From NCBI GenBank assembly GCA_023484305.1, contig JAMDAL010000001.1:1-32200 (forward strand): a stretch of DNA of 32,200 nucleotides, in the 5' to 3' direction. The stretch is from Patescibacteria group bacterium (GTDB taxonomy: Bacteria; Patescibacteriota; Microgenomatia; JACPZF01). Below, one piece after another: positions 10,864 to 32,200 of the stretch. The position numbers and the translations under genes were made by a program. The first letter of the stretch is position 1; the number at the start of each line of letters is the position of its first letter. The notes under the pieces are model-generated. The model did no database searches and was not told the DNA's origin. It saw only the letters and a program-made list of their open reading frames with translations.

Positions 10864-11256
10864 CTATAAATCTTTAAACACTTTTGCTAACGATGGACCA
10901 AGCACTTGAATTGAAAACTCATAAAACTGGCCAAAAGGCACAATGTGCACAGTTAAATTCATTTTTAGCTTTTCGCCCATTTTCTGTATCAGATCATTTG
11001 CGGTTTCCGGATCGGATTTACTATTTGAAAGGTGAGCAAAAGAATGGAGAATTACTGTACTCGTATTATTTTTATTTGCTAGCCATTTAATGTTCCCGAC
11101 AGCTTTATCGACCACATCGTTCTTATCTTTGTCGGTTTCTTCTACATGGATAAATATAACTAGAGAGTTATCAAAACTCACCTTTTCTGTTTCAGGAGAG
11201 TCTGAACTATATGGCTTATACCAAAAACTTTTTGTGTGAAACATTAACAGCTTCAT
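10864..11256 (-). CDS. Free-standing archaeal-type threonyl-tRNA synthetase editing domain (DTD-like fold)
   Basis: MKLLMFH, LVIFIHVEETD, LHSFAHLS, PFG..YEF match the archaeal ThrRS N-terminal pattern (LLIH, VE..D, FAHLS, PFG) as recalled. Confidence 0.8.
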   Translation of the reverse strand: MKLLMFHTKSFWYKPYSSDSPETEKVSFDNSLVIFIHVEETDKDKNDVVDKAVGNIKWLANKNNTSTVILHSFAHLSNSKSDPETANDLIQKMGEKLKMNLTVHIVPFGQFYEFSIQVLGPSLAKVFKDL

Positions 11257-11639
11257 ATTTTACTTCTATCTATAATTCCTCTAATAATTTCATCAACTTC
11301 TCTAGGTAAAGAACCTAAGTTTGCCTTAGGGAAAAATTGAGGCAATATGATAGGTCGCATACCGGAAATATAAGTTTTACCGCCCTTTTGATAGACATTT
11401 ATCTTGCAAGGAAGACAAAGACCTATCTTTAGATCAGCCTGTAAAGCATTGTAGGCATTTTTAGCGTTGCATATCTCAATAATTTTGAATGGCTCAATCG
11501 TAAAACCTTTTTCAGCCAAAGTTTTCGTAACATCATGGGTATAAAGCACCCGAAATCCAGCCTTTTTTGTTTCCTGCTCCACTATGGCAACCGCATCTTC
11601 AAATGATTTTTCCGTAGTTACTGTATAATCAAAATCCAT
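11253..11639 (-). CDS. DUF302 family protein
   Basis: GFRVL..HDV, IIEICNA, IGLCLPCKINVY; SD AAAGGAG before ATG 11639. Confidence 0.85.
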   Translation of the reverse strand: MDFDYTVTTEKSFEDAVAIVEQETKKAGFRVLYTHDVTKTLAEKGFTIEPFKIIEICNAKNAYNALQADLKIGLCLPCKINVYQKGGKTYISGMRPIILPQFFPKANLGSLPREVDEIIRGIIDRSKI

Positions 11640-11655
11640 AAATTCTCCTTTCAAA

Positions 11656-11979
11656 CTAAAATGTTAATACTTTATCGCTTGTTGCAACCAGAGAATATAA
11701 ATCTGCAATCCCACCTTTGGGACAACTTTTACTGTCTTGCTGGTGGCGCATATTCATGCATGTACCACATGCGATGAGTTCAGCTTTTTCTGCCTGTAAA
11801 AACTTATCAACCTGTTCGTTTAGATTAAATTGTTCCTGATTTACTTTGTCATACTCCACCGCTTCACCTAAAAGAAACATTCTGACTTCATCGCCTTTTG
11901 TTAAGGCTAGATTTGCTAACCTAAAAGCATTCCAGTTGGTTTCTAAATTTTTGGTAGAAAGAATTATTGATAATTTCAT
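11656..11979 (-). CDS. DsrE/DsrF-like sulfur-relay protein
   Basis: WNAFRLA, VRMFLLGEAVE, ACGTC, SDKVLTF. Confidence 0.85.
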   Translation of the reverse strand: MKLSIILSTKNLETNWNAFRLANLALTKGDEVRMFLLGEAVEYDKVNQEQFNLNEQVDKFLQAEKAELIACGTCMNMRHQQDSKSCPKGGIADLYSLVATSDKVLTF

Positions 11980-12344
11980 ACCGGTTGACTCTTTTTGTAA
12001 CCCTCTAAAAACCTATGGATAAGTTTATCTGTTCGGGTAAGGGAGCTTGCTGCTGACTTTAAGAAGTCTTTTCCTTCCTGAGTAATGGTATAAGTCCTTC
12101 TGTCTGGACCTGAATCATTTTTCTCCCAATCGGATGTTACCCAATCATCTCTTTCCATTCTTCGTAAAGTCCTGTATAAATCGCCAATATCCACTTTTTC
12201 ACCGCAATGTTTTTCTAAATCCTCCATAAGTCCATATCCATGAGAGGAACCTTTTGAAAGGAGAAGTAAAATACACGGCTCAATAAACCGTTCAATATTG
12301 CCAAAATCCCTTGACCGAAAAGAACAGCCACAAGTTCTGCACAT
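11976..12344 (-). CDS. PadR family transcriptional regulator with N-terminal CxxCxC
   Basis: HGYGL, LYRTLRRMERD, GPDRRTYTITQEG; start reassigned to MCRTCGC because it lies downstream of the promoter. Confidence 0.9.
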   Translation of the reverse strand: MCRTCGCSFRSRDFGNIERFIEPCILLLLSKGSSHGYGLMEDLEKHCGEKVDIGDLYRTLRRMERDDWVTSDWEKNDSGPDRRTYTITQEGKDFLKSAASSLTRTDKLIHRFLEGYKKSQPV

Positions 12345-12354
12345 ATATGTTAAT

Positions 12355-12383
12355 ATCATATAGCATGACAAATTAAATGTCAA
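12355..12383 (-). promoter_or_regulatory. Sigma70 promoter with palindromic operator
   Basis: TTGACA-17-TATGAT on the minus strand; TGACA-N7-TGTCA at 12366-12382 overlaps the -35. Confidence 0.75.
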
Positions 12384-13441
12384 GTCCTTGTACTGGTCCA
12401 GTACTTCTTGGACTCTAAGTCCTCCTTTAACATAAAAGCCATGGGTGTTAAGTAACCCAAGGCTTGGTGTGGTCTGACTGTATTGTAGTATAACAGATAA
12501 TTAATGAGTTTCTGGTTAAAACTGTGGATATCTTCAAGTTCTTCTGTGTGAGAGTCAACAAATTCCTCTTGAATGGTTCTGTTAAACCTTTCAATAAAAG
12601 CATTGGACTTAGGAGTATGAGGATAGGAAAAATAGTGGGTGATGTTCTTTCTTTTCAGGTAAGAATCAAGTTCTTTTTGAAATTCCAATCCGTTGTCAGT
12701 TTTAACTGCCTTGACTTTAAAAGGAGCTACTAGCTCCAGTTTTTGATAAAAGTCTAAGGCTATGGCACTACTGAGCCCTTTGTAGGAAAAGGCAAAAGAA
12801 AACTTGGAATAGACATCTAAACAAGTCAGAATATATCTTTTTAAACCCAAATCAAATCTGACGATGGTATCAATCTGAAGAAGCTCTCCTGGGCTTTTGG
12901 ACTTAAAGTTTTTGCTTACTCTGTCCTTGTGCCTTCTAATTCTTGTTTTTGCCCATTGAGAGCTGGCATCATGATAAACCCTGCCCAGTTTTAAATAACA
13001 CCAATGGTTTCTGTTAATGATCCTGCCTACTTTAGAAGCAGAAACTAAAGGTAAACCTTCTTTTTCACAGTAAGCATCCAGAAGTATTTTAATCTTTTGT
13101 TTACCAAACCTGCCATTGTGTAGTCTGAGGTTATGAATAAACTCTAGTATCTTTGAGTCTACCAACATCTTTCTAGTAGTTTTAGGTTTGGTTGATAAGG
13201 GGACTAAAGACATTAGGCTACCACCAGACTTTTTTAACTGTCTCTTCCACAAAAAGAGAGTACTTCTGCCTACTTGATAGGCCTCCTTAGTAGCAGTAAA
13301 ACCAAACTGATCATAGAAGGACAAAACTTTCATTCTGAACTTGGCCACATCACTAACAGAATATTGTTGAGAAGAAGAAAAATATTTCATGAGGGTAGCA
13401 TAGCCTACTACCCCTTTAAAAAGAAACCTGGTTTTGTCCAA
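12380..13441 (-). CDS. IS481-family DDE transposase (rve integrase core)
   Basis: HTH N-terminus; PGELLQIDT, KTDNGLEF, PKSNAFIERFNRT, YNTVRPHQAL. Start could be ATG 13390. Confidence 0.92.
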   Translation of the reverse strand: MDKTRFLFKGVVGYATLMKYFSSSQQYSVSDVAKFRMKVLSFYDQFGFTATKEAYQVGRSTLFLWKRQLKKSGGSLMSLVPLSTKPKTTRKMLVDSKILEFIHNLRLHNGRFGKQKIKILLDAYCEKEGLPLVSASKVGRIINRNHWCYLKLGRVYHDASSQWAKTRIRRHKDRVSKNFKSKSPGELLQIDTIVRFDLGLKRYILTCLDVYSKFSFAFSYKGLSSAIALDFYQKLELVAPFKVKAVKTDNGLEFQKELDSYLKRKNITHYFSYPHTPKSNAFIERFNRTIQEEFVDSHTEELEDIHSFNQKLINYLLYYNTVRPHQALGYLTPMAFMLKEDLESKKYWTSTRT

Positions 13442-14259: not shown

Positions 14260-15465
14260 TTAAACAATTGTTAACCCCGGGTTGGCAGATATTTTCTTCC
14301 AGGAAACAGGGTGATAATTAAAAAATGCGCAGGAAGCAATATAAAAGGCATTGTCATTGCAAAGTTTAGGAGGCGGAATATACAGATAAATTTTAAATTT
14401 TAAATTTTTAATTTTTAATGAATTTTCAATTTCAAATTTTAATTTTTCTCTTAGTCTTTGATTGGCTGCCACTCCGCCACCCAGCAAAATAGTTTTTGGT
14501 TGATAAATTTCTGCAGCCTTAATAACTTTGGCCGTTAAAACATCAGTAATGGCTTCCTGAAGTTCATAGGAAACGGCATTAATTGTTTCATTGTTAAATT
14601 GTTTTATTGCTTTTAATTTTTCTACTTCCCGCATGACGGCCGTTTTTAAACCACTAAATGAAAAGTCTAAATTATCTTCGTTTATCAATGGCCTGGGCAA
14701 TCTAATTGTTGTCTGTTTTCTGTTATCTGTTATCTGTTGTGCCGCTGCGGCAATGGCCGGTCCCCCAAAATAACCATTTAATCCTAAAAGCCTGGCAGAT
14801 TTGTCAAAACATTCTCCGGCCGCATCGTCTCTGGTGCCGCCTAAATATTTTAATTGACCGTGGTTTTTCATTAACACCAAATCTGTGTGTCCGCCGGAAA
14901 CAACCAGACAGAGAGCTGGAAACTGGGGCAGGTTATTATTAATTTTTTCCTCTTTGTCATTCCCGCGAAAGCGGGAATCTATATGATAATTATTTTTATG
15001 GATTCCTGCCTGCGCAGGAACGACATTGGTATTAATCCAGTTGGCATAAATATGGCCGACCAGATGGTTAACCGGGACGATTGGTTTTTTCCAAACCAAG
15101 GCCAGCGTTTTGGCAGTTTCAACCCCGACCAAAAGAGAACCGATTAGGCCGGGACCAACAGTAACAGCAAGAGCGTCAATAGAATTATCGATATTACGAT
15201 ATTTCGATATTGCGATATTAGGCGCTTTTTCCTTATTTTTCCTAATATCATAATATCCTAGTATCCCGGCATTTTTTAAGGCTTCTTCAATCACCGGAAT
15301 AACGCATTTTACCTGTTCTCTGGCTGCTATCTCCGGAATTACCCCGCCGGTTTTTTGATGCAAATCTAGGGAAGAGGCAATAGTCTGAGAAATAATTTTG
15401 GTGCCGTTTTCCACTACGGCCGCAGCTGTTTCGTCACAGGAAGTTTCAAGAGCCAGAATACGCAT
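14260..15465 (-). CDS. tsaD: tRNA N6-threonylcarbamoyltransferase TsaD with in-frame repeat insertions
   Basis: LETSCDET, GPGLIGSL, NHLVGH, VSGGHT, DDAAGECFDK, FSFSGLKT, GGVAAN, DNA. Confidence 0.97.
   Translation of the reverse strand: MRILALETSCDETAAAVVENGTKIISQTIASSLDLHQKTGGVIPEIAAREQVKCVIPVIEEALKNAGILGYYDIRKNKEKAPNIAISKYRNIDNSIDALAVTVGPGLIGSLLVGVETAKTLALVWKKPIVPVNHLVGHIYANWINTNVVPAQAGIHKNNYHIDSRFRGNDKEEKINNNLPQFPALCLVVSGGHTDLVLMKNHGQLKYLGGTRDDAAGECFDKSARLLGLNGYFGGPAIAAAAQQITDNRKQTTIRLPRPLINEDNLDFSFSGLKTAVMREVEKLKAIKQFNNETINAVSYELQEAITDVLTAKVIKAAEIYQPKTILLGGGVAANQRLREKLKFEIENSLKIKNLKFKIYLYIPPPKLCNDNAFYIASCAFFNYHPVSWKKISANPGLTIV
14388..14446. repeat. AT-rich heptamer array inside tsaD (KLKFEIENSLKIKNLKFKI)
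   Basis: AATTTTA-like units; same family as 16063-16200. Confidence 0.75.
14581..14615. repeat. Octamer ATTGTT array inside tsaD (KAIKQFNNETI)
   Basis: ATTGTTTC ATTGTTAA ATTGTTTT ATTGCTTT. Confidence 0.7.
14706..14738. repeat. Heptamer CTGTTWW array inside tsaD (QQITDNRKQTT)
   Basis: CTGTTTT CTGTTAT CTGTTAT CTGTT; 19 bp identical to 18170-18188. Confidence 0.75.
14955..15025. repeat. TGTCATTCC palindromic element inside tsaD (VVPAQAGI...DSRFRGND)
   Basis: TGTCATTCCCGCGAAAGCGGGAATC...GATTCCTGCCTGCGCAGGAACGACA; contains ATTCCC-N8-GGGAAT; relatives at 18021 and 22341. Confidence 0.9.
15190..15266 (-). repeat. GATATT/AATATC bipartite octamer element inside tsaD (ILGYYD...ISKYRNI)
   Basis: 64/77 identical, ungapped, to 21103-21179. 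Confidence 0.9.
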
Positions 15466-17979: not shown

Positions 17980-18008
17980 TTGCACTTCTTGCTAATTTTT
18001 TCTAGACT
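17980..18008 (+). promoter_or_regulatory. Sigma70 promoter for the solute-binding protein
   Basis: TTGCAC-17-TAGACT. Confidence 0.6.
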
Positions 18009-18020
18009 GGAAATACCACT

Positions 18021-18151
18021 TGTCATTCCCGCGCAGGCGGGAATCTATATGAGTATTGTTCGAACAGCGAGAACTTCTCACTTTCTGCCTGTCCGGCAGG
18101 CAGGCGTTCGAAGAATATATTTATGGATTCCCGATTAGACCGGAAATGACA
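18021..18151. repeat. Three-layer nested palindromic element
   Basis: Outer TGTCATTCC..GGAAATGACA; middle TATTGTTCGA..GAGAACTTCTC..TCGAAGAATA (18054-18117); inner CTGCCTGTCCGGCAGGCAGG (18085-18104). Confidence 0.88.
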
Positions 18152-18160
18152 AATGTAAAA

Positions 18161-20465: not shown

Positions 20466-21347
20466 ATGAAAATAACAAGCTCGCAAATTCTGGCAATTTT
20501 ATACGCGGATATTTTTGATTATCCGTTAAAAAAGGATGAGTTAGAAAGGTGGCAGATAAAAGATAGGTATAAAAATTATAATGATTATAACAATTATAAA
20601 GTTTATACTTATAAGAACGGTTATTTCTGCCCTTACGGCCGAGAAAAAATCATTAATCTTCGTCAGCAAAGAAAAAAATATTCACAGCAGAAAATTCATC
20701 TGGCAAAAAAAACTGTCCAACTCTTACAAAAAATTCCTTTTATAAAACTGGTTGCCATTACCGGTGCCTTATCTATGTATAACAGTCCGCAGGAGGACGA
20801 CATAGATTTATTAATTGTGACGGAAAAAAACCGTTTATGGATTTCCCGATTTTTAGTTTCCATTTTCTTAGATGTGTTAGGAAAAAGAAGAAGGCCAAAA
20901 GATACAAACTTTCAGGACAAAATTTGTCTAAATATGTTTTTAGAAGAATCAAAGCTGCAAATTCCCCGGAGAGAACAAAATTTATACACAGCCCACGAGG
21001 TTTGCCAGATTATGCCAATTTACAACAAACTGCAGACGTATGAAAAGTTTCTGTCGGCAAATAAATGGACGAAGAAGTATTTACCAAACGGAGTCGACAA
21101 TAGGATATTAGGATATTATGATACCAGGCGAAATAAAGATAAATCACGTATTATCGTAATATCGAAATATCATAATATCATCTTAGATTTTCTTGAATAC
21201 ACAGCCTATAAACTGCAGTATATTTATATGAAATCCAGAATGACCAGGGAAACAGTGGAAAGAAAAAGGGCATTCTTCCATCCTCTGGACAGAACCAATT
21301 GGGTTTTAAAAGAATTCAATAAGCGATTAAAAGAGATTAATTGGTAA
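20466..21347 (+). CDS. Nucleotidyltransferase-domain protein (pol-beta-like), with repeat insertions
   Basis: YADIFDYPL; ITGALS...DDIDLLIV; KICLNMF; LYTAHEV; terminal FFHP. Confidence 0.75.
   Translation: MKITSSQILAILYADIFDYPLKKDELERWQIKDRYKNYNDYNNYKVYTYKNGYFCPYGREKIINLRQQRKKYSQQKIHLAKKTVQLLQKIPFIKLVAITGALSMYNSPQEDDIDLLIVTEKNRLWISRFLVSIFLDVLGKRRRPKDTNFQDKICLNMFLEESKLQIPRREQNLYTAHEVCQIMPIYNKLQTYEKFLSANKWTKKYLPNGVDNRILGYYDTRRNKDKSRIIVISKYHNIILDFLEYTAYKLQYIYMKSRMTRETVERKRAFFHPLDRTNWVLKEFNKRLKEINW
20568..20614. repeat. Nonamer TTATAA array inside CDS (YKNYNDYNNYKVYTYK)
   Basis: TATAA recurring at 9-bp period. Confidence 0.65.
21103..21179 (+). repeat. GATATT/AATATC element, copy 2 (ILGYYD...ISKYHNI)
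   Basis: 64/77 identical to the tsaD copy. Confidence 0.9.
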
Positions 21348-22340: not shown

Positions 22341-22459
22341 TGTCATTCCCGGCCAGGAGGGAATCTATGTTATTGTTCGAACCGCCAACTGGCGGTGAGA
22401 ACTTCTCGCCTTGGGCTCGAAGAATATTGGTATAGATTCCTGCCTTCGCAGGAATGACA
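22341..22459. repeat. Three-layer nested palindromic element
   Basis: Outer TGTCATTCC..GGAATGACA; middle 22371-22426; inner ACCGCCAACTGGCGGT (22381-22396). Confidence 0.88.
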
Positions 22460-22524: not shown

Positions 22525-24843
22525 ATGGCGGATAATATGGAAAATCAAAAATCAAAAATCAAAAATCAAAATAGAAATTATTCTTCGAACGAAGCGAGAA
22601 GTTCTCGGCCCTTGGCCTCGAACAATAATTTATCGTTTTTACGCAAGTTAAACTCGTTTTTCCTTTTTGCCAGTAACAAACAAATTAGCGTTACTGTTGG
22701 CGTAATATTTTTGTTTTTAGTGGCCAGCTTTTACTGGTTTATCTTAAAAGATTTGCCCTTTCCCACCCAGCTTACCAGCCAAACCCCTTCCCAGACCACC
22801 AAAATTTTTGACAGGCACGGGGCACTTCTTTATGAAATTTATGTCAACCAGAACCGGACCATTGTTCCCCTGTCGCAAATCCCTCTTTATTTAAGAGAAG
22901 CCACAATTTCCATTGAAGATAAGGATTTTTACCGTCACGGCGGCATTAACGTGGTTAACGGCATGCTTCGGGCCGTTAAGGCGATGGTGATTAACCGGCA
23001 GGGCTTGCAGGGGGGATCAACGATTACGCAGCAACTGGTTAAAACTTCGCTTTTAACCCCGGAGCGGACAATTATCCGGAAAATAAAAGAAGTCGTTCTG
23101 GCAGTTATCACCGATAAAATTTATAGTAAAGACCAGATTTTGGCTATGTATTTAAACAGAGTGCCATACGGCGGTACGGCCTGGGGGGTAGAAGCCGCCA
23201 GCGAAAAATATTTTAATAAAAAAGTCAGCCAGCTGGGTTTGGCAGAGAGTAGTATGCTGGCCGGACTTCCGGCCGCGCCGACACTTTATTCGCCTCTGGG
23301 CAGCCACCCGGAATTGGCCAAAAAACGCCAGGCGGAAGTTTTGGGGCGCATGAGGGAAGACGGTTATATTACCCGCCAGCAGGAAGAAGAGGCAGAAAAA
23401 GAAATTCTGCACTACAACTTAAACAGCCAGCAAATTAAGGCGCCTCATTTTGTGATGTATGTCAAAGATTTGCTGGAGAAAAAATACGGAGAAAATTTGG
23501 TGGAGCGGGGCGGACTTCAGGTGACCACCACCTTGGATTTGCCCATTCAAAATTTTGCCCAGCAAACCGTGGCCAGCGAAGTGGCAAAGTTAAAAACCCT
23601 GGACGTTGGTAACGGCGCGGCCCTGGTGACAGAACCGGCAACCGGAGAAATTTTAGCCATGGTGGGCTCAAGGAATTATTTTGACACCACTCACGACGGC
23701 AATGTTAATGTCACTTTGGCCTTAAGACAACCGGGCTCTTCTATTAAACCGGTTAATTATGCGCTGGGGCTTCTCAAAGGAGCCACGCCGGCGACCCTTT
23801 TTATTGATGAACCAACCTGTTTTGCCAATATTGCCGGACAAAAACCCTATTGTCCTGTTAATTATGACGGCAAATTTCATGGCCCGGTGCAGCTGCGGTT
23901 TGCCCTGGGCAACTCCATTAATATTCCGGCTGTCAAAATGCTGGCCGAAAACGGAGTACACAGCATGGTGGCAACGGCTTCGGCTATGGGGATTAGTACC
24001 TGGACTGATGAAAGCCGTTTTGGTTTATCACTAACTTTGGGAGGGGCAGAAGTGCGTATGACCGATATGGCTACAGTTTACGGCGTTTTTGCCAACGCCG
24101 GGGCCAGGGTTGACCTTAACCCGGTCTTAAAAGTGGTGGACAGTTCGGGCAGGGTTTTGGAAGAAAATAAACAGGCTTACAGCTGGGACAAGAAACAAAC
24201 CCATTCGCTTTTGGATATTAACGGCAAAAGAGTTTTACCCTGGGATGTCACCTATTTAATTTCCCACATTCTTTTGGATAATAACGCCCGGTCGATGGAG
24301 TTTGGAGACAACAGCCCCCTGCGCGTTTCAGGGCACAGCGCTGTTTCTGTCAAAACCGGCACCACTGACGATAAGCGGGATAACTGGACCATCGGGTACA
24401 CCCCTTCCTATGTCGTGGCAGTTTGGGTTGGCAACAATGACAATACGCCGATGAATCCGTATTTGTCATCCGGTATTACCGGGGCAGCGCCTATTTGGAA
24501 TAAGATTATGACCTATTTGCTAAAAGATTCCAAAGACCAGTGGCCCTTAATGCCGTCTGATATTGTTGGTATGCAGATTTGCAGCCTGTCGGGGAAGTTG
24601 CCCGGAGACACCGGGTGTCCCGCGCGTTTTGAATATTTTATCAAAGGCACAGAACCAACCCAGGTTGACGATAGCAGAAAGAATGTTTTAGTTGATAAAA
24701 CCACAGGAGGATTGGCCAAACCCGGACAGACGGATAACGTGGAAGAGCAAATGCACACCGTGGTCAAAGACGCTTTTACCGGCTTTTGTGTGGACTGTAG
24801 CTCCACCAGTTCTTCAACTTTGGTGACAACGTGGAAGTTCTAG
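22525..24843 (+). CDS. Class A penicillin-binding protein (PBP1A type); true start may be 22537
   Basis: EDKDFYRH, GGSTITQQLVK, RKIKE, QPGSSIKP, NSIN, KTGT; TGGTAAAAT at 22518-22526 overlaps the first ATG. Confidence 0.96.
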   Translation: MADNMENQKSKIKNQNRNYSSNEARSSRPLASNNNLSFLRKLNSFFLFASNKQISVTVGVIFLFLVASFYWFILKDLPFPTQLTSQTPSQTTKIFDRHGALLYEIYVNQNRTIVPLSQIPLYLREATISIEDKDFYRHGGINVVNGMLRAVKAMVINRQGLQGGSTITQQLVKTSLLTPERTIIRKIKEVVLAVITDKIYSKDQILAMYLNRVPYGGTAWGVEAASEKYFNKKVSQLGLAESSMLAGLPAAPTLYSPLGSHPELAKKRQAEVLGRMREDGYITRQQEEEAEKEILHYNLNSQQIKAPHFVMYVKDLLEKKYGENLVERGGLQVTTTLDLPIQNFAQQTVASEVAKLKTLDVGNGAALVTEPATGEILAMVGSRNYFDTTHDGNVNVTLALRQPGSSIKPVNYALGLLKGATPATLFIDEPTCFANIAGQKPYCPVNYDGKFHGPVQLRFALGNSINIPAVKMLAENGVHSMVATASAMGISTWTDESRFGLSLTLGGAEVRMTDMATVYGVFANAGARVDLNPVLKVVDSSGRVLEENKQAYSWDKKQTHSLLDINGKRVLPWDVTYLISHILLDNNARSMEFGDNSPLRVSGHSAVSVKTGTTDDKRDNWTIGYTPSYVVAVWVGNNDNTPMNPYLSSGITGAAPIWNKIMTYLLKDSKDQWPLMPSDIVGMQICSLSGKLPGDTGCPARFEYFIKGTEPTQVDDSRKNVLVDKTTGGLAKPGQTDNVEEQMHTVVKDAFTGFCVDCSSTSSSTLVTTWKF
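22541..22628. repeat. (AAAATCA)4 array plus free-standing TCGA/GAGAA element in the PBP N-terminus
   Basis: Four perfect heptamers at 22541-22568; 22578-22628 (51 bp) is the reverse complement of the middle layer of the nested elements. Confidence 0.85.
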
Positions 24844-24850
24844 CCGTCTA

Positions 24851-24879
24851 TTGACATTACATATCTTTTGTCATATCAT
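24851..24879 (+). promoter_or_regulatory. TA operon promoter with operator
   Basis: TTGACA-17-TATCAT; TGACA-N12-TGTCA inverted repeat. Confidence 0.75.
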
Positions 24880-24882
24880 TAG

Positions 24883-25170
24883 ATGATGAAATATTTCGAT
24901 TGGGACGAGGTGAAAAACGGAAAACTTAAGGCTGAAAGGGATATTTCTTTTGAGGAAGCAATTATTGCCATAGAGGCAGAAGGCATTTTAGATATAGTTG
25001 ATCATCCTAATCAAAAACGCTATCCCGGACAAAAAATTTTCGTGGTCAATATTAACATTTACGCGTATTTAATTCCTTTTGTGGAAGATACGGAAAAAAT
25101 ATTTTTAAAAACCATTATATCAAGCAGAAGAGCAACAAAGAAATATTTAATAGAGAGGAGAAAAGTATGA
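24883..25170 (+). CDS. BrnT-like (RelE fold) toxin; start may be 24886
   Basis: FDWDEVKN..LKAERDISFEE, HPNQ..YP, FLKTI..SRRAT. Confidence 0.85.
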   Translation: MMKYFDWDEVKNGKLKAERDISFEEAIIAIEAEGILDIVDHPNQKRYPGQKIFVVNINIYAYLIPFVEDTEKIFLKTIISSRRATKKYLIERRKV

Positions 25171-25445
25171 AATATTTTGACTTAGACCAGGAAGAAAAAG
25201 AAATTTTACAGGCCTTGGAAAAAGGCAAATTAAAAAGCGCGGGAAATATTGCGAAGGTGAAAAAGCAATACGAACAATACGCTCGGGAAACTCTAGCCAA
25301 GACCAAAAATATTAATATCAGGTTGTCACAAAAAGACCTTTTAAAACTTAAGGCCAAGGCGGTTGAGCTTGGTTTGCCCTATCAGACACTGATAGCCTCG
25401 GCCCTGCATCAGTATGCGGGCAGGCCAGAGTCTGTTTTTGCATAA
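25167..25445 (+). CDS. CopG/RHH-type antitoxin
   Basis: KNINIRLS..DL..LKAKA...GLPYQTLI; overlaps the toxin stop. Confidence 0.85.
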   Translation: MKYFDLDQEEKEILQALEKGKLKSAGNIAKVKKQYEQYARETLAKTKNINIRLSQKDLLKLKAKAVELGLPYQTLIASALHQYAGRPESVFA

Positions 25446-25500
25446 ACCGTTAGAGAAAAGATGTTTATGAGGTTCTTAGACAAATGCAAAAGTAAAATAA

Positions 25501-25785
25501 TTAAGTACCTTTTAACTTAATATCTTCATCCCCAATCTCCATTTTTTGTCCCGGTTTCAAGTCAAAAAAAACCGAACCGTGACCTTGAATGGAAATGTCA
25601 GGCGTTTTGTCTTTAGGCGAAAGTTTAACATCTGTGGCAAAGCGCTCATTAGTTATTAGTACAGTTCCACCTTTTGCCCAACCGTGTATGTTTGCTGTTG
25701 CGCCTCCTGCTAGGGGTATTTTTTTGTTTTCGCCGCTTCCTACAATAATTCTTTCTCCTTTAACAATTCCTAAAATTGGTGCCAT
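25501..25785 (-). CDS. Hypothetical small beta-rich protein
   Basis: SD AAGGAGG; promoter TTGACT-17-TAGACT (25841-25813). Confidence 0.75.
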   Translation of the reverse strand: MAPILGIVKGERIIVGSGENKKIPLAGGATANIHGWAKGGTVLITNERFATDVKLSPKDKTPDISIQGHGSVFFDLKPGQKMEIGDEDIKLKGT

Positions 25786-25868
25786 ATTTTCCTCCTTTAT
25801 AATTTAGCCCATAGTCTACCAATCTCTCTTAATAAAGTCAATGGCTCGTAACAAAGCCACAAAGTCGT

Positions 25869-25970
25869 TGTCATTTTGAGCACATTCGACAAGCTCAGTG
25901 TAAACTGTGCGAGGAATCTTATTCCATAGACCTGATTTGTATGAGATCCTTCACTTCGTTCAGGATGACA
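25869..25970. repeat. TGTCATTYTGAGC..CAGGATGACA element with nested TTCGACAAGCTCAG unit
   Basis: Terminal IR; GAATCT/AGATCC inner stem; sister copy at 26608. Confidence 0.85.
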
Positions 25971-26052
25971 CGGTACTGTTTGGTAGCTACGTTCCCAATG
26001 TGTATTGGGATCTTCGCAATGATAAATAAAGGAAAGTGGTATACTTTAGGAT

Positions 26053-26604
26053 ATGGCAAATTATGAAAAAGATCAAAAACTGGTAGCAGAGATTTTAAAA
26101 GGAAACGAAAAAGCCCTGCGGGAATTTTATCAAACCCATTCTCCCAGGCTTTTTAGCTATATTTTAAGAAAAGTTGCCAAAGAAGAAGACAGCCAGGAAC
26201 TTTTGCAGGACACCCTCTTTGCCGGTCTGGAAGCCATGCGCGACTATGAGGGTAAAAGCAGTCTCTTTACATTTCTCTGTGCCATCGCCAACCATAAGGT
26301 GGTTGATTTTTACCGCAAAAAAAAGCTTAGACAAATGCTGTTTTCCCAAATGCCGAATTTGGGAAATTTAATCAGCGAACTGTTAAGCCCCGAAGAGCGA
26401 TACAATAAAACGGAGCTTAAAGAAAAAATAAAACTCTGCTGGGCCAGTTTGCCGCAAAGATACCAGACTATTTTGCGGCTAAAATACGTGGAGGGTTTAA
26501 CGGTTGTGCAGATTGCCGGCGATTTAAAAGAAACCGTCAAAAGCATAGAGTCAGCGCTTTTTCGCGCCAGAAAGGCCTTTATCAAAGTCTATACACAAAT
26601 ATAG
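26053..26604 (+). CDS. ECF-type RNA polymerase sigma factor
   Basis: Region 2 ELLQDT..FTFLCAIANHKVVDFYRK; region 4 LP..YQ.IL.LKYVEGL..IA..LFRAR. Confidence 0.92.
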   Translation: MANYEKDQKLVAEILKGNEKALREFYQTHSPRLFSYILRKVAKEEDSQELLQDTLFAGLEAMRDYEGKSSLFTFLCAIANHKVVDFYRKKKLRQMLFSQMPNLGNLISELLSPEERYNKTELKEKIKLCWASLPQRYQTILRLKYVEGLTVVQIAGDLKETVKSIESALFRARKAFIKVYTQI

Positions 26605-26607
26605 TTA

Positions 26608-26695
26608 TGTCATTCTGAGCAAAGCGAAGAATCTCTCGCGAATGCGAGTAGCTCAAACAAGTTGAGAGATCCTTCGGCGAAGCCCCAGGATGACA
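26608..26695. repeat. TGTCATTCTGAGC..CAGGATGACA element
   Basis: TGTCATTCTGAGCAAAGCGAAGAATCTCTC...GAGAGATCCTTC...CAGGATGACA fills the intergenic gap. Confidence 0.85.
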
Positions 26696-26699
26696 AAAA

Positions 26700-26957
26700 A
26701 TGAAAAAGAAAAAACTTTCCCAAAAATTTTCTCAAAATCTTCTTAGGCAACTTTCTTTTAAACAAGACGAAGTGTCCCAACTTCCCCCTCAGACCATGGG
26801 GCCGTTAACTCCAATTTACAAAAAAGCCGCCAGCCGTTTAAAAGTTAATCCCTGGAAAATTCTTATACCGATTTCTTTAATCTTGGCCCTTTTGGTTTTA
26901 AAGATGACCGGACTGTTTTCTGTTAAACTGGTTTCGGTTCTACAGCAGGCTTTTTAG
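26700..26957 (+). CDS. Small membrane protein (possible anti-sigma factor)
   Basis: 85 aa with C-terminal TM, directly after the ECF sigma gene. Confidence 0.65.
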   Translation: MKKKKLSQKFSQNLLRQLSFKQDEVSQLPPQTMGPLTPIYKKAASRLKVNPWKILIPISLILALLVLKMTGLFSVKLVSVLQQAF

Positions 26958-26997
26958 TAAAGGAAAAACTCTTCTGGTCGCGACTAAAGATTTTGCC

Positions 26998-27630
26998 ATG
27001 TTAATTAGTCTTTCGCTGTCTTTGCTAAGGCTTTTTGCCAGATTTTCTGTCAATACCTACGGCGTTTTTCATAAACCCTATGAAACCTGGCGCCGGCTGG
27101 TACAGGAAAGCGACCTGGGACAAATTGCTATTTGGGGTTTTTTGCTTTGGGCATATCTGTCTGTGGCTGTGGTGGTAAAAAACGGCCTGGCCACAGGAGC
27201 CTTGTTTTTAACTTTTAATTTAAACCGCTTATTTAACATCACCGTTGTTTCTTTTATGGCGGTGACCCTGCTTTTTTGGCTGGCAGGGACCTGGTGCCAT
27301 GGCAGGGGCAGTCTTAAAGAAGTTGCCGCCAGCTGGGTTTTTTCCTATTTGCCGACTTTAATCTGGTTTTTTTCTACCACGATTTTATATTTGATTTTGC
27401 CTCCTCCCCGAACCCAAAGTTTTTTGGGCCAAATTTTTACTTTGGTTTTTCTGGCCTTTTCTTTAAGTTTGTTATTCTGGAAAATAATTCTGTACTATCT
27501 GACCATGCGTTTTGCCCTGCGAATGAACTTATGGCAAATACTAAGAGCCAGTTTGGTGATTGTACCGGCCTTAACGTGTTATTTTTTACTGTTAAACAGA
27601 CTGGGGTTTTATAAAATACCATTGGCGTGA
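26998..27630 (+). CDS. Yip1-like polytopic membrane protein
   Basis: KPYETWRRL N-terminal motif, FSYLP, about five TMs. Confidence 0.7.
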   Translation: MLISLSLSLLRLFARFSVNTYGVFHKPYETWRRLVQESDLGQIAIWGFLLWAYLSVAVVVKNGLATGALFLTFNLNRLFNITVVSFMAVTLLFWLAGTWCHGRGSLKEVAASWVFSYLPTLIWFFSTTILYLILPPPRTQSFLGQIFTLVFLAFSLSLLFWKIILYYLTMRFALRMNLWQILRASLVIVPALTCYFLLLNRLGFYKIPLA

Positions 27631-27631
27631 A

Positions 27632-27714
27632 ACACAGATTTAAACGGATGCAAAACTGATTTAAGCAGATATTTTTCTGTTTACATCTGCTTTTAATCCG
27701 CTTATATCTGTGTG
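27632..27714 (-). repeat. ACAGAT/ATCTG bipartite element, copy 1
   Basis: Reverse complement is 78/83 identical to 28888-28970. Confidence 0.92.
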
Positions 27715-27720
27715 AAAAAT

Positions 27721-28929
27721 ATGTTAAAAGGAACTAAATTAAAAGATTATCCTCATGCCCAAAAAAGACGGTTGTTTCTAGAGAAAACTTTGGGTATCAA
27801 CTTGTCTGGTTTGGGAGAATTTTCCTTTGCCGAGGATGCTGTTCGTAACAAAAATATTGAAAATTTAGTGGGAGCCACACAAATACCCATGGGTGTGGCA
27901 GGACCAATTCTTGTTAACGGTCAGTTTGCCAGAGGGGAGTTTTATTTACCTTTAGCCACAACAGAAGGGGCCTTGGTGGCTTCGGTTTCCCGCGGGTGCA
28001 AGGCAATTAGTCGGTCTGGCGGAGTAACAGTGTTAGTAGAAAATGTTGGTACTACCCGCGCCCCGGTTTTTCAGACCAAGGGAATTTCAGAAAGCAAAAA
28101 ATTAATTAAGTGGGTAGAAAATAATTTTTCCGCATTACAAAAGGTGGCAGAAAATTCTTCGTCACACCTTAAACTTTTAAACTTTAAACCATATTTTATG
28201 GGAAGAAACGTGTGGTTAAGACTTAACTTTGACACCGCTGATGCGATGGGTATGAATATGGCGACAACAGCTGCCACTCTAATAATACGTATTATCGAAG
28301 TAAAAACAGGATGCAAATGCGTTTCCGTATCCGGCAACTTAGATGTTGATAAAAAACCCAGCTGGATAAATTTTTTGGAAGGAAGAGGCAAAAAAGTTTG
28401 GGCAGAAGCTGTGATTTCTAGAGAAATAGCGCAGGAGGTTTTAAAAACCACTCCGGACAAGATGGTTGAAACAAGCAGGGCCAAAGTTTTATATGGTTCA
28501 ATTTTGTCCGGCTCTTTAGGTTTTAACAGTCACTTTGCCAACATTATTGCCGCCTTATTTGCCGCCACCGGTCAGGATTTGGCCCATATTACTGAAGGAA
28601 GTTTAGGCGTGACTACGACTGAAATTTCAGACAAAGATTTATATATCAGCATTTACTTGCCGGACTTAATGATAGGTACGGTGGGCGGGGGTACCGGCCT
28701 TCCTGCGCAAAAAGAAGCCCTGTCTTTGTTAAAAATACCAGATCCTTCTTTAAAAAGCGGTCAACAGGTTTTAAAACTGGCGGAAATTATTGGCTCTGCG
28801 GTTTTAGCAGGAGAGTTGTCCTTATTGGGTGCGCTTGCAGCAGGCCAGTTAGCCAGTGCACATGAAAAACTTGGTAGAGGCAGGATGCACACAGATATAA
28901 GCGGATTAAAAGCAGATGTAAACAGATAA
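27721..28929 (+). CDS. hmgA: HMG-CoA reductase, class I (NADPH)
   Basis: ENLVG, LATTEGALVAS, DAMGMN, GQDLAH, GTVGGGT, catalytic His in HEKLGR. Confidence 0.96.
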   Translation: MLKGTKLKDYPHAQKRRLFLEKTLGINLSGLGEFSFAEDAVRNKNIENLVGATQIPMGVAGPILVNGQFARGEFYLPLATTEGALVASVSRGCKAISRSGGVTVLVENVGTTRAPVFQTKGISESKKLIKWVENNFSALQKVAENSSSHLKLLNFKPYFMGRNVWLRLNFDTADAMGMNMATTAATLIIRIIEVKTGCKCVSVSGNLDVDKKPSWINFLEGRGKKVWAEAVISREIAQEVLKTTPDKMVETSRAKVLYGSILSGSLGFNSHFANIIAALFAATGQDLAHITEGSLGVTTTEISDKDLYISIYLPDLMIGTVGGGTGLPAQKEALSLLKIPDPSLKSGQQVLKLAEIIGSAVLAGELSLLGALAAGQLASAHEKLGRGRMHTDISGLKADVNR

Positions 28930-28970
28930 ATACCTGCTTAAATCAGTTTGTCATCTGTTTAAATCTGTGT
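28888..28970 (+). repeat. ACAGAT/ATCTG bipartite element, copy 2
   Basis: Overlaps the hmgA 3' end and supplies its stop codon. Confidence 0.92.
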
Positions 28971-28978
28971 AAAAAATT

Positions 28979-30013
28979 ATGCTAACAGGTATCGTAGGTT
29001 ACGGCGTTTATATTCCAAAAGGAAGAATTAAAACTTCCGAAATTGCCCGCGTCTGGAAAAAAGAAGCCTCTGATTTAGAACATTCTTTGGGCGTTTTGGA
29101 AAAGGCAGTGGCTGCAATTGACGAAGACGCGGTCACTTTGGCCACCCAGGCGGGAAAGGATGCCATTTTTATGTCCGGGGTTAATCCGCAAGAAATTGAA
29201 GCCATGCTGGTTGGTTCCGAGTCTCATCCGTATGCGGTTAATCCTTCCAGTACTATTGTGGCTGAAGCCCTGGGATTTTCCAATTCCTACTTGGCAGCGG
29301 ATTTAGAGTTTGCCTGCAAGGCCGGAACCGCCGGGTTAATTTTTGTGGCCGGGTTGGTGGAAGCAGGAAAAATAAGTTTAGGCATGGCCATTGGTTCTGA
29401 CACGGCACAGGCCAAACCTCATGATGTTTTGGAATACACTGCAGGGGCAGGGGCAGGAGCATATCTTTTGGGCACGAAAAACATTTTGGCAAACATTCTG
29501 GATTACACTTCTTTTTCTTCCGACACTCCGGATTTTTGGCGCCGGGAAGGCATGCGCTATCCTTCTCATGGCGGCCGCTTTACCGGAGAACCGGCCTATT
29601 ACACTCATATTTTGGGGGCAGCAGAGGCGCTTTTGACCAAAACCAAAACCAAACCGAGCGATTATGATTATTGCGTTTTTCACAGCCCCAACGGCAAATT
29701 TCCCCAGGCAATTTATTCCAGATTAGGCTTTACACCGGAGCAATTTAAACCCGGATTTATTGTTGATAAAATCGGCAACCCTTATTCTGCTTCTTCGCTT
29801 TTATCTTTAGCGTCGGTTTTAGAAATTGCCAAACCCAAACAAAAAATCTTTCTGGTTTCTTATGGTTCCGGGGCAGGTTCAGACGCTTTTGCCTTAGAAA
29901 CGACAAATTTATTGCCAAAAGCCAGAACTAAAACCAAGCAGATTTCCTGGTTTATAAACAACAAAAATTATCTGGACTACATTCAATTATTAAAAAATGA
30001 AAAGAAAATTTAA
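28979..30013 (+). CDS. HMG-CoA synthase, archaeal type
   Basis: GSESHPYAV, DLEFACKAGT, FTGEPAY, FHSPNGKFP, IGNPYS, SYGSGAGSD. Confidence 0.95.
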   Translation: MLTGIVGYGVYIPKGRIKTSEIARVWKKEASDLEHSLGVLEKAVAAIDEDAVTLATQAGKDAIFMSGVNPQEIEAMLVGSESHPYAVNPSSTIVAEALGFSNSYLAADLEFACKAGTAGLIFVAGLVEAGKISLGMAIGSDTAQAKPHDVLEYTAGAGAGAYLLGTKNILANILDYTSFSSDTPDFWRREGMRYPSHGGRFTGEPAYYTHILGAAEALLTKTKTKPSDYDYCVFHSPNGKFPQAIYSRLGFTPEQFKPGFIVDKIGNPYSASSLLSLASVLEIAKPKQKIFLVSYGSGAGSDAFALETTNLLPKARTKTKQISWFINNKNYLDYIQLLKNEKKI

Positions 30014-30015
30014 AA

Positions 30016-30082
30016 GATAACGATTAAATATTAACGAGTTAACGGGTTAACGCGTTAATAAATAACCCGTTAATAATTAATA
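30016..30082. repeat. Octamer TTAACG array, intergenic
   Basis: TTAACGAG TTAACGGG TTAACGCG TTAA...TAACCCGTTAA. Confidence 0.75.
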
Positions 30083-30088
30083 AAAAAT

Positions 30089-31240
30089 ATGGCGATTACT
30101 GTTTTAGGCGCTTCTACCACTAATTTTGGTGAACTCTGGAATCAGAGTTTGCGCGATTTAATTAGAGAAGCCAGCCTCTTAGCCCTAAAAGATGCCAATT
30201 TAAGCCCCAAGGATGTGGAAGCGGTTTTTGTTGGCAATATGCTGTCAGGAATTTTAGGCAGTCAGGAACAATTAGGGCCGGTGGTAACAGAAGAGTTGGG
30301 CATAAATGTTTCTGCCACAAGGGTGGAGGCGGCTTGCGCCTCAGGGGGGCTGGCAATTTATGAAGCAGTTAACAGTTTATTGTCCCAAAGATTTACAACA
30401 GTTTTGGTCGTAGGCGCGGAAAAAATGACGGATAAACCAGCGGAAAAAATCACCAGCAGTTTAATGGCAGCCGGTTCTGATGCCGAAAGACAGGCCGGAG
30501 CGACTTTTCCCAGTTTGTATGCGCTTTTGGCCAAAGCGCATATGGAAAAATACGGGACCAGCGAAGAAGAAATGGCAGCCGTGGCAGTTAAAAATCACTA
30601 CCATGCTTCCTTAAACGGCCAGGCGCAGTTTCGCTTTTCCATTACCATAGAACAAGTTTTAAAAAGCACAAAAATTTGTGACCCCTTAAAACTTCTGGAC
30701 TGTTCGCCGATTACCGATGGGGCAGCAGCAGTGGTACTTACGTCAGAAAACAGTAAACAAAAAACAGTAAACAGGCATGTTTACATTAATGCTTGTGAGA
30801 CTGCAACCGATACTCTGGGTCTGGCGCAAAGAGAAAGTTTGACAGAGTTAAAAGCGACCAAACTGGCAGCAGAAAAGGCTTATAAAAAGGCCGGTGTCAC
30901 ACCCAAGGATATTGATGTGGCAGAACTTCATGACTGTTTTACTATTGCCGAGATTATGGCAGTTGAGGATTTAGGATTTTTTAAAAAAGGCGAAGCCGGA
31001 AAAAAATTTTTACAAGGAGAAACCAAATTGGGAAGCAAAGGCTTAATCACTAACACATCAGGGGGGCTCAAGGCCTGCGGGCATCCGGTGGGAGCAACCG
31101 GCATTAAACAAATTGCCGAGATTACCAAGCAGCTTAGGGGCAAAGCAGAGAAAAAACAAGTGGAAAATGCCAAGGTTGGGCTGTGTCAAAATGTAGGAGG
31201 GTCCGGCGCGACAGCAGTAGTTACTATTTTAACAAATTAA
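30089..31240 (+). CDS. Acetyl-CoA acetyltransferase (archaeal/SCP2-type thiolase)
   Basis: VEAACASGG, CSPITDGAAA, ELHDCF, SGGLKACGHPVGATG, NVGGSG. Confidence 0.95.
   Translation: MAITVLGASTTNFGELWNQSLRDLIREASLLALKDANLSPKDVEAVFVGNMLSGILGSQEQLGPVVTEELGINVSATRVEAACASGGLAIYEAVNSLLSQRFTTVLVVGAEKMTDKPAEKITSSLMAAGSDAERQAGATFPSLYALLAKAHMEKYGTSEEEMAAVAVKNHYHASLNGQAQFRFSITIEQVLKSTKICDPLKLLDCSPITDGAAAVVLTSENSKQKTVNRHVYINACETATDTLGLAQRESLTELKATKLAAEKAYKKAGVTPKDIDVAELHDCFTIAEIMAVEDLGFFKKGEAGKKFLQGETKLGSKGLITNTSGGLKACGHPVGATGIKQIAEITKQLRGKAEKKQVENAKVGLCQNVGGSGATAVVTILTN
30744..30774. repeat. Heptamer AACAG array inside thiolase (SENSKQKTVNR)
   Basis: CAGAAAA CAGTAAA CAAAAAA CAGTAAA CAG; same family as 14706 and 18170. 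Confidence 0.65.
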
Positions 31241-31241
31241 C

Positions 31242-31341
31242 AGCTTGCTAAGGTCGCTTAGCAATTTTTTCCGGCGTCAAAAGTCCTTCGACAAGCTCAG
31301 GACCGCGACTCCTCAAAAATTGTCTAAGCTCCCCGCAAGCT
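31242..31341. repeat. AGCTTGC..GCAAGCT palindromic element with nested TTCGACAAGCTCAG unit
   Basis: Terminal IR plus GCTTAGCAATTTTT/AAAAATTGTCTAAGC; 14-bp unit at 31287-31300 identical to 25885-25898. Confidence 0.8.
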
Positions 31342-31366
31342 TTAGAGATAAAAATAAGGAAAATTT

Positions 31367-31693
31367 ATGACTAGTCCAATAAAAATCTGGAGAGAACAGA
31401 AAAAAATTAAAAACTTTTTAGGTTTAAAAGGAAAAGTCGTCAGTGCGACTTTGGTGCGCGTGCCTCCTTTGGGATTTTCTAATCAGGCGCCGTATTTTGT
31501 GGCGATTGTGGATATGGAAAACCCAGCCAAAGGCGGGCAAGGCAAGCAACGGCTAATTGGCCAAATGGTGGATGTGTTTGAAACCGAAATAAAAACCGGG
31601 CAAAAAGTGGAAGTAGTTTACCGCAAATTGGCAGAGACAGACAAAGAAGACGTCATTCATTACGGTATAAAATTCAGACCAACCTCACCCTAA
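31367..31693 (+). CDS. DUF35 OB-fold protein lacking the zinc ribbon
   Basis: WR...GKVVS.T...PP.GF..APY.VAIVD...GQMVD...G.KV..VYRK...YGIKFRP; no cysteines; follows HMGS and thiolase. Confidence 0.88.
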   Translation: MTSPIKIWREQKKIKNFLGLKGKVVSATLVRVPPLGFSNQAPYFVAIVDMENPAKGGQGKQRLIGQMVDVFETEIKTGQKVEVVYRKLAETDKEDVIHYGIKFRPTSP

Positions 31694-31759
31694 CCACACA
31701 CCTCTCGGAGAGGGAATTATTTTTTTACCTTCTCCTTTTAGGAGAAGGCAGGATGAGGT
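31682..31759. repeat. CCTCxCCC double-hairpin element, copy 2
   Basis: ACCTCACCCTA...CCTTCTCCTTTTAGGAGAAGG...GGATGAGGT; inverted relative to the 13492 copy. Confidence 0.8.
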
Positions 31760-31765
31760 CTTTAT

Positions 31766-32200
31766 ATGAAAGAAATTACAGTTTCCGCCCCGGGAAAAGT
31801 GCATTTAACCTCTGCCCATATTGTGGTTTATGGCAAACCCGCCCTTCTTTGTGCCATAAATTTGCGCGTGACAGTCTCAATAAAAAACGAAAACCATCAG
31901 GGAAAAATTATCATCTCCAGCAATATCTTTAAAGATGCTTTAACTTTAGAGAACAAAAAGATTAAAACTTTTACAGCCCAGGCCAAAAAGAGCTGGGAAG
32001 AGTATGGAAAAACTAACAACATTGAATTAATAAAACCCCTTACCGAGCCTGCCGGTTTTGTCAAAATCATTATAGGAGAAACGCTGGCATATCTTAAGAA
32101 AGATTTAAAAGACGTGGAAATCAATATTAATTCCCAGGTTCCCTTGGGTGCCAACTTTGGCGGTTCGGCCTCAGTTTCCGCGGCTCTTTTTGGCCTGGGC
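31766..32200 (+). CDS. GHMP kinase, mevalonate kinase-like, partial and atypical
   Basis: Manual translation, open to window end: MKEITVSAPGKVHLTSAHIVVYGKPALLCAI...NSQVPLGANFGGSAS. Confidence 0.85.
   Translation, partial: MKEITVSAPGKVHLTSAHIVVYGKPALLCAINLRVTVSIKNENHQGKIIISSNIFKDALTLENKKIKTFTAQAKKSWEEYGKTNNIELIKPLTEPAGFVKIIIGETLAYLKKDLKDVEININSQVPLGANFGGSASVSAALFGLG

Follow-up and report, generated by a model that had tools for sequence, protein, structure and literature searches.

Small palindromic repeats occupy the short gaps on both sides of an HMG-CoA reductase gene in a Microgenomates-type genome

The window analyzed here is an entire contig of 32,200 nt (C33) from genome G000, an ultra-small, Microgenomates-type bacterial genome of the candidate phyla radiation (CPR) type (723 kb in 54 contigs, 83% complete, 40% GC). 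Its HMG-CoA reductase gene, hmgA, lies between two 83-nt copies of one repeat in opposite orientation. We consider it likely that these are two small palindromic selfish repeats wedged into the tiny gaps around a gene that has not moved, a case of ordinary repeat biology. We infer mobility from presence and absence in relatives and from the dispersed, diverged family to which the copies belong; short-range copying and passive tolerance of the insertions are inferred as well.

In the explanation we favor, two noncoding elements of 82 to 83 nt, resembling MITEs (miniature transposable elements with inverted repeats) or REPINs, would have inserted in the short gaps flanking hmgA in an ancestral mevalonate operon. 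The downstream copy would have entered right behind Met389, the final sense codon of the original gene, and ahead of its original stop. Translation then continues through 13 codons of the element until it meets a TAA in the loop. The second copy was probably copied from the first, over a short range and in opposite orientation. Each copy is predicted to fold as its own hairpin in the operon mRNA, with at most modest effects on expression; the insertions would be tolerated because each landed after one gene's stop and before the next gene's start, and because stops are present in the element itself.

An inverted repeat pair brackets hmgA and extends its reading frame

The left copy (27632-27714, + strand) and the right copy (28888-28970, - strand) score 99.1 and 101.1 bits, respectively, with the model of the repeat family. 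A repeat finder reported the two as inverted arms of 83 nt each, 94% complementary, with a spacing of 1173 nt. By our own count, the reverse complement of the left copy matches the right copy at 78/83 positions without a gap, whereas a comparison in direct orientation gives only 21/83; no chance match to a 42-nt piece of the left copy was found in 100 shuffles of the window. The inverted repeat proposed in the initial annotation was thus reproduced by two routes. The five mismatches all fall in the outer halves of the copies, and the inner 39 nt adjoining hmgA are identical.

The left copy fills the gap between the stop codon of the upstream gene (27628-27630) and the hmgA ATG (27721), and it ends 6 nt before that ATG, as had been stated. 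The right copy ends 8 nt upstream of the ATG of the next gene (28979). Read in the hmgA frame, its first 39 nt (+ strand) are the last 13 hmgA codons, giving HTDISGLKADVNR, and the loop then provides the stop TAA at 28927-28929. In the equivalent frame the left copy has AAA at the stop codon, and the frame closes four codons later. Both parts of the earlier description of the gene end, that the right copy gives the last 13 residues and that an AAA/TAA mismatch makes the stop, therefore hold in this reading.

The hmgA gene (27721-28929, + strand) encodes an intact class I (NADPH) HMG-CoA reductase of 402 amino acids (aa), in which residues 390 to 402 are encoded by the element. Family PF00368 spans residues 13 to 386 (profile positions 2 to 368 of 368, E 7e-121), a full-length catalytic domain; the match to TIGR00533, at 423 bits, is slightly below the cut-off of 441.8, and PDB chain 6hr7_A (E 4e-108) aligns to its own last residue at query residue 386. 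The longest open reading frame (ORF) would start at a GTG at 27712, and relatives align only from residue 5 to 7 on. A conserved C-terminal His, which we take to be the catalytic His of class I enzymes, is the reference point for the length of the tail. Among 120 listed proteins, the query included (111 have the His motif), this residue is followed by 8 residues in 48 proteins, by 7 in 19, and by 9 in 14. In the query the tail is 21 residues long, the usual 8 plus the 13 from the element. The closest homologues listed, at 70 to 73% identity and labelled Gottesmanbacteria, Daviesbacteria, or Microgenomates in their sources, have the normal short C-terminus. Comparison of C-termini, which had been suggested at the outset, thus places the query tail 13 residues beyond the modal 8.

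A candidate for the native hmgA stop lies at the far end of the right copy. The TAA at 28970-28972 (+ strand) is in frame only if 28888-28969 (82 nt) is removed, and it then follows directly after Met389 (28885-28887). This is probably the native stop; its use would leave the modal 8-residue tail and a 6-nt spacer to the downstream ATG.

The copies belong to a dispersed family of palindromic elements

A search of the whole genome with nhmmer identified seven full copies on six contigs, together with half-copies and an 18-nt fragment; we refer to these as the "CAGAT" family. Full copies outside the hmgA locus are found at C5:7648-7730, C6:298-387, C2:1357-1440, C32:1054-1131, and C14:25063-25141, half-copies at C16:11619-11663, C16:12807-12851, and C38:2435-2480, and the fragment at C16:6266-6283. 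The elements measure 82 to 83 nt at hmgA and 78 to 90 nt overall, and they are noncoding, with stops in most frames. Each of the seven full copies occupies a very short intergenic gap, and one of its ends lies 3 to 9 nt from a start codon. Three of the seven supply the C-terminal tail and the stop of the upstream gene, in three different frames: 13 residues for hmgA, 10 for a 1,218-aa ORF on C14, and 15 for a 546-aa ORF on C6.

Each 83-nt copy is itself predicted to fold into a long imperfect hairpin, with RNA folding energies of -24.5 to -32.7 kcal/mol (z -4.1 to -7.0) on either strand; 0 of 200 shuffles folded as well as either copy. The left copy hairpin gave -30.9 kcal/mol (z -6.8), and the + strand of the right copy -29.7 kcal/mol. 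The seven copies have the ends ACACAGAT...ATCTGTGT. The invariant columns of the family resolve each arm into four direct units of ~10.5 nt with a conserved xGAT core and variable spacers; GAT stands at positions 6, 16, 27, and 37 of the left copy. When either strand of each copy was folded for minimum energy, no arm formed a hairpin by itself. In an alignment of 18 elements that was fitted to a covariance model and leans toward structure, 91% of cells (425 of 469) were paired and double changes were seen in 25 of 28 pairs. A search of Rfam at E up to 0.1 with both hmgA copies and the C16 locus matched no family.

A role of the copies as terminators or promoters was considered and set aside. 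Neither hmgA copy has a terminator-like site; one weak promoter-like match (9/12) lies inside the right copy, and such matches are fewer in the region than in its shuffles.

Two other loci of the family were also examined and rejected. The C2 copy, which lies between ORFs of 403 and 383 aa, was considered as a second or inverted hmgA-thiolase locus; only repeats are common to it and the window, and the tblastn matches are distant paralogues. Judged by eye, these two ORFs presumably encode a GTPase of the Obg type and a LysM/M23 peptidase. The C16 half-copies, which enclose a 1.14-kb segment, were considered as an autonomous parent; the enclosed 262-aa gene, which by eye presumably resembles inositol monophosphatase, stands in an ancestral synteny (Pth, this gene, membrane protein) found in three same-family relatives. 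The C16 interval (11619-12851, locus L008) holds a left-arm and a right-arm half-copy. Nested in the same gap are a 196-nt repeat from a different family, one with 9 intervals, and another palindrome.

The two copies at hmgA are each other's closest relatives

The hmgA pair is identical at 78/83 positions (94%), while every other pair within the family matches at 61 to 72 of 83 to 91 columns (at most 86%). The initial annotation had asked whether the two copies are closer to each other than to other genomic copies, and they are; it had also pointed to many equally similar copies as grounds for coincidence, and although other copies do exist, none is equally similar. By this comparison the hmgA copies are sister copies. 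The simplest way to account for their closeness is copying over a short range, which supports the local copying that had been put forward. Most likely one copy would have been made from the other, or both from the same donor, over a short distance and in opposite orientation. In a simulation with ~784 gaps, seven randomly placed copies gave at least one adjacent pair with P = 0.049; with ten copies (half-copies counted), at least two adjacent pairs arose with P = 0.004, the second observed pair being the C16 half-copies.

The companion suggestion, that the gene end was later repaired, fared less well. The T of the hmgA TAA is the family consensus and is present in 5/5 other copies, so it is the left copy that carries the derived state. 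The stop-making base being the consensus and the left copy the changed one, the stop was not "repaired"; without it, the frame would close four codons further on in any case.

Elements of related design are found in a few other genomes

For synteny and DNA searches we used 40 relatives, 3 from the same family and 37 from the same class. At the DNA level, the element was found in 0/3 same-family genomes, and one weak 36-nt match was found among the 37 same-class genomes. A covariance model built from the seven full copies and run against 60 relatives identified full-length relatives of the element in 4/60, again in 0/3 same-family genomes. These have the same architecture, with four phased units per arm, and different motifs. 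They lie between the genes for ribosomal proteins S8 and L6, between those for L31 and a release factor, between pilin-like genes, and possibly inside an aminoacyl-tRNA synthetase ORF; three of them, in same-class genomes, are at L046:1501-1585 (G007), L047:1501-1578 (G024), and L045:1501-1582 (G053). The G053 element may be an in-frame insertion: the ORF in which it appears to lie encodes a class I aminoacyl-tRNA synthetase of 632 aa, and its place there is after the catalytic and before the anticodon-binding domain or the reverse.

The exact 23-base pattern of the right arm had no match in genome or metagenome contigs. The invariant-column pattern was found in three metagenome contigs (L053 to L055), in 0 species-representative genomes, and in 0 viral contigs. 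One of these contigs, L053, is collinear with C32 along 1,034 nt (76% identity), and the element occupies the matching site in both, so that insertion is common to both and old. The 94% identity of the hmgA pair indicates an event that would be much younger than such old family insertions.

The hmgA gene has kept its place in a mevalonate operon

The gene order around hmgA is ECF sigma factor, Yip1, hmgA, HMG-CoA synthase (HMGS), archaeal-type thiolase, DUF35/OB-fold protein, and mevalonate kinase, with a PBP1a gene upstream. The Yip1-domain membrane protein gene (26998-27630, + strand, PF04893) has its native stop intact, 1 nt before the left copy, and the archaeal-type HMGS gene (28979-30013, + strand) matches NF003274 at E 3e-146; both are conserved neighbors. 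An hmgA match at E up to 1e-20 was found in 13/40 relatives. HMGS follows hmgA on the same strand in 12/13 loci, the 13th stopping at a contig end, and Yip1 precedes it in 9/13, with the sigma factor farther upstream in most. The distance from the hmgA stop to the HMGS ATG is 1 nt in the two closest genomes (G002 and G003), and the Yip1-hmgA gap in relatives, read from the printed sequences, is 6 to ~22 nt.

Gene congruence was compared by identities only. Identity to the three same-family genomes is 61 to 66% for hmgA, 61 to 69% for HMGS, 66% for thiolase, and 47 to 56% for Yip1 and the sigma factor, and the same relatives' genomes are closest for hmgA and for each neighboring gene. With its place and orientation as in relatives and its identity tracking that of its neighbors, the gene appears never to have moved. 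A cassette that can move, as the initial annotation had it, is contradicted by these loci, and the comparison of hmgA descent with that of its neighbors, made here by identities, gave no sign of a separate origin.

A search for the methylerythritol phosphate pathway gave a Dxr match of 18.1 bits, under the cut-off of 21.7, and no match for GcpE in a genome that is 83% complete, which leaves absence unproven. The mevalonate route appears to be the cell's only pathway to isoprenoid precursors, as far as the encoded genes tell.

Every gap of the mevalonate operon contains some repeat. A copy from a different family, with 15 intervals genome-wide, lies in the gap after the ECF sigma factor gene (26601-26679), a copy from a 2-interval family in the HMGS-thiolase gap (30028-30090), and a copy from a 3-interval family in the thiolase-DUF35 gap (31245-31338), where it starts with a terminator-like hairpin.

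Points that weigh against insertion of a mobile repeat

Several results do not sit easily with the insertion of two mobile elements. The flanks of all seven full copies were inspected and had no consistent shared direct repeat of at least 2 nt, so classical MITE transposition, with its target-site duplication, is unsupported. No empty site was found in a close strain. With no hmgA homologue above 73% identity, the case for "insertion" had to be made from relatives that are distant. If the five mismatches of the hmgA pair were spread evenly, all would fall in the outer halves with a probability of about P 0.04 by our own arithmetic; the clustering may be due to chance, or the inner arms could have undergone recombination or gene conversion with each other. 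The mRNA-sense strand agrees with the one found for the right copy in 5/6 orientable copies, the left hmgA copy being the exception. G000 is only 83% complete and in 54 contigs, so repeat copy numbers are lower bounds.

Candidates for the mobilizing enzyme are in the same position. The genome-wide nhmmer search, which gave only the seven full copies, half-copies, and weak matches, turned up no autonomous parent or cognate transposase. Five RAYT-like genes were considered as mobilizers, and 0/5 are flanked by the "CAGAT" family; at 83% completeness, a sixth such gene could be missing. An rve-family (DDE) transposase ORF in the window (12380-13441, - strand, 353 aa) has flanks and ends unrelated to the element. 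Given the lack of target-site duplications, our guess is that the mobilizing enzyme would be one of the HUH/Y1 (RAYT-like) transposases of this genome. An orientation preference of the family relative to transcription or replication may exist.

Alternative explanations for the paired repeats

An alternative that we regard as improbable is that the pair has been co-opted as an RNA element. In this model, the two copies would pair with each other into a stem of ~80 bp around the hmgA cistron, RNase III would cut it, and the level or stability of hmgA mRNA would be uncoupled from Yip1 and from HMGS and thiolase. Thermodynamically, the pairing is favored. The predicted duplex between the copies has an energy of -121.1 kcal/mol versus -30.5 and -27.9 for the two local hairpins, -58 together; in the minimum-energy fold of a 1,366-nt piece of the transcript, 79 bases of the left copy pair with the right copy, and limiting the pair span to 150 nt costs ~98 kcal/mol. 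The earlier statement that the segment can fold back stands in this thermodynamic sense alone. An RNase III gene is present (C29, 117 bits), and a review of MITEs describes RNase III cleavage of Correia-element hairpins in mRNAs (PMC10969869). However, the local hairpins form first during transcription, and ribosomes translate the first 42 nt of the right copy. There is no hint of selection for pairing, the operons of relatives are without such elements, and bracketing by repeats is common in G000.

A broader proposal, to which we likewise give little credence, would combine such a function with a taxonomic claim. The "CAGAT" element would belong to an undescribed foldback class of Microgenomates-type bacteria, with four helically phased (~10.5-nt) copies per arm of a genome-specific motif (xGAT here, others in G007, G053, and G022), suggesting coevolution with a mobilizing DNA- or RNA-binding protein, and the hmgA pair would have been co-opted as a double-stranded RNA clamp of ~80 bp for RNase III to excise or destabilize the HMG-CoA reductase cistron. 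If this were true, the clamp would control how much flux enters the cell's sole isoprenoid pathway without affecting the other genes of the operon.

It is very unlikely that the repeats form an invertible switch, in which recombination between them would flip the 1.17-kb hmgA segment and turn the gene off by phase variation. The cell has the substrate for such an event, 83-bp inverted repeats with a 39-bp identical inner stretch, and the position of all mismatches outside that stretch fits exchange there; RecA is encoded, and rare inversion would be possible. Site-specific invertible promoter or gene segments such as fimS, hin, and the shufflon are likewise DNA segments bounded by inverted repeats. 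Unlike these, hmgA has no recombinase among the neighboring ORFs from 22525 to 32200, and a Pfam scan of 36 ORFs across the window identified no resolvase/invertase or tyrosine recombinase, only the rve transposase 14 kb away. The repeats come from a dispersed family, and what they enclose is a whole gene of an essential pathway in its ancestral orientation, which is also the assembled one. Inverted repeats also enclose seven other genes, simply because repeats are so dense in this genome. Inversion would make hmgA antisense and shut down what appears to be the sole source of isoprenoid precursors, although the cell, with its PBP1a gene, makes peptidoglycan; it should therefore be selected against.

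Cassette replacement, in which hmgA was imported or swapped by recombination and the flanking repeats either provided the homology or formed the two ends of a composite element, is less probable again. The exact bracketing, the unusual similarity of the copies, and a third-codon-position GC content (0.373) somewhat below that of the neighbors (0.41 to 0.46) would suit it. Total GC (0.42) is like that of the neighbors, however, and the position and orientation found in 12/13 relatives' loci, with identities that track the neighboring genes, speak against it. So do published trees: in PMC6107057, most Microgenomates are described as carrying mevalonate genes, and the HMGR-I tree follows the CPR species tree, in agreement with vertical inheritance.

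Least probable of all is an assembly artifact, a contig misjoined or misoriented at repeated 31-mers, which could be read from contigs breaking inside both copies in the run X1. Any repeat that exceeds the assembler word size should cause breaks of this kind, and they are uninformative on orientation. The assembled order and orientation match the synteny of relatives, and hmgA runs in frame through the junction. A search for sequencing runs listed three DNA runs of one study (X1, X2, and X3), as Logan contigs, and no RNA run; X1 is the likely source run. Over 26800-29800, the X1 contigs break inside both repeat copies, leaving 27685-28917 as a separate 1,233-nt contig, and X1 has no joint; joints in X2 and X3 over the same region stem from other organisms and are of low likeness.

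Comparison with known palindromic repeats

We return to the reading we prefer, two selfish repeats inserted around an unmoved gene, and compare the element with described families. It resembles REPINs in several respects (PMC3337134): a long hairpin of ~80 to 100 nt made from two inverted halves (82 to 83 nt here; an example from Pseudomonas fluorescens SBW25 is 89 bp), no coding capacity, dispersal in intergenic gaps, no visible target-site duplication, and host genes for RAYT-like HUH/Y1 proteins. In contrast to the short imperfect palindrome of a repetitive extragenic palindromic (REP) sequence, the arms of the "CAGAT" element consist of four direct ~10.5-nt units. No cognate RAYT gene is flanked by the family, its copy number is low (seven), and 3/7 copies overlap the 3' ends of genes.

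The element also has the terminal inverted repeats, small size, and lack of coding capacity of a MITE. Like Correia elements of Neisseria and ERIC sequences (PMC10969869), it is small and bounded by terminal inverted repeats, lies just upstream of genes or at their 3' ends, and is cotranscribed; MITE hairpins can be substrates of RNase III or RNase E according to the same text. It differs in having no target-site duplication, no insertion sequence with matching ends, and no promoter evidence. A third comparison is with Rickettsia palindromic elements (RPEs), selfish palindromic repeats in a reduced genome that join protein genes without destroying them (PMC10969869). RPEs are ~150 bp long and lie in frame inside ORFs, whereas the "CAGAT" element is added to the extreme 3' end of a gene, for which it provides the stop codon; the resemblance would be functional only, an analogy. 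With arms that are not REP palindromes, no cognate RAYT, no target-site duplication, and no parent insertion sequence, we file the element under small palindromic mobile repeats, in no named family. None of the papers listed in our literature searches joins CPR with MITE or REP, which is not proof that no such paper exists.

The striking geometry of the locus has a plain explanation, and hmgA should therefore no longer be treated as a possible switch or mobile metabolic cassette. What the locus offers instead is a clean example, from an ultra-small CPR-type genome where genes are hardly separated at all, of selfish palindromic repeats that wedge themselves into an essential operon whose genes are coupled in translation. 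The repeats donate C-terminal tails and stop codons to three proteins, in a manner like that of RPEs. Such short repeats also break the assemblies of these genomes, and 3/7 full copies of the family lie no more than 1.4 kb from a contig end.

Repeat background of the genome and other features of the window

Comparison of G000 with itself identified 86 repeat families, whose short intervals add up to 40,137 nt (5.55%). With 158 intervals one family is the largest, and the "CAGAT" family ranks eighth; small GC-rich hairpins of the type TGTCATTCC...GGAATGACA make up the largest group. Fourteen of ~730 ORFs are bracketed by a short repeat of one family, seven of them in inverted orientation. A load of 5.5% of 723 kb in 86 families, with five RAYT-like genes, is unexpected for a genome so reduced. 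Further short repeats in the window are at 14938-15031, 17995-18157, 22341-22380, 22403-22459, and 22527-22642.

The five RAYT-like HUH/Y1 transposase matches (Y1_Tnp, 211 to 253 aa, four of them above the Pfam cut-off) are RAYT/IS200-like ORFs at C18:4213-4857, C23:1742-2422, C50:16592-17353, C25:432-1067, and C12:3046-3690. A palindrome particular to each ORF, and unlike those of the others, lies on either side of it. Those on C18 and C23 lie, as we judge by eye, just downstream of what are presumably tRNA-like genes.

At the rve ORF of the window, a repeat spans 12375-12514, and contigs C14 and C8 terminate in further copies of one end of this ORF; an insertion sequence there probably breaks the assembly. 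A 77-nt repeat with GATATT-like units occurs in three copies (15189-15266, 21103-21179, and C14:52298-52374). The two in the window are inverted relative to each other, at 83% identity, and lie within long ORFs, a TsaD-like one (14260-15465) and that at 20466-21347.

Upstream of the sigma factor gene, the ORFs at 24883-25170 and 25167-25445 (+ strand) form an overlapping pair with weak, below-cut-off Pfam matches to a BrnT toxin and a CopG-type antitoxin, and they likely encode a type II toxin-antitoxin pair. Finally, the ORF at 10864-11256 (- strand) encodes a stand-alone 130-aa protein with the archaea-specific editing domain of threonyl-tRNA synthetase (PF08915, E 4e-38), an archaeal-type feature in a bacterium, as the mevalonate genes are.

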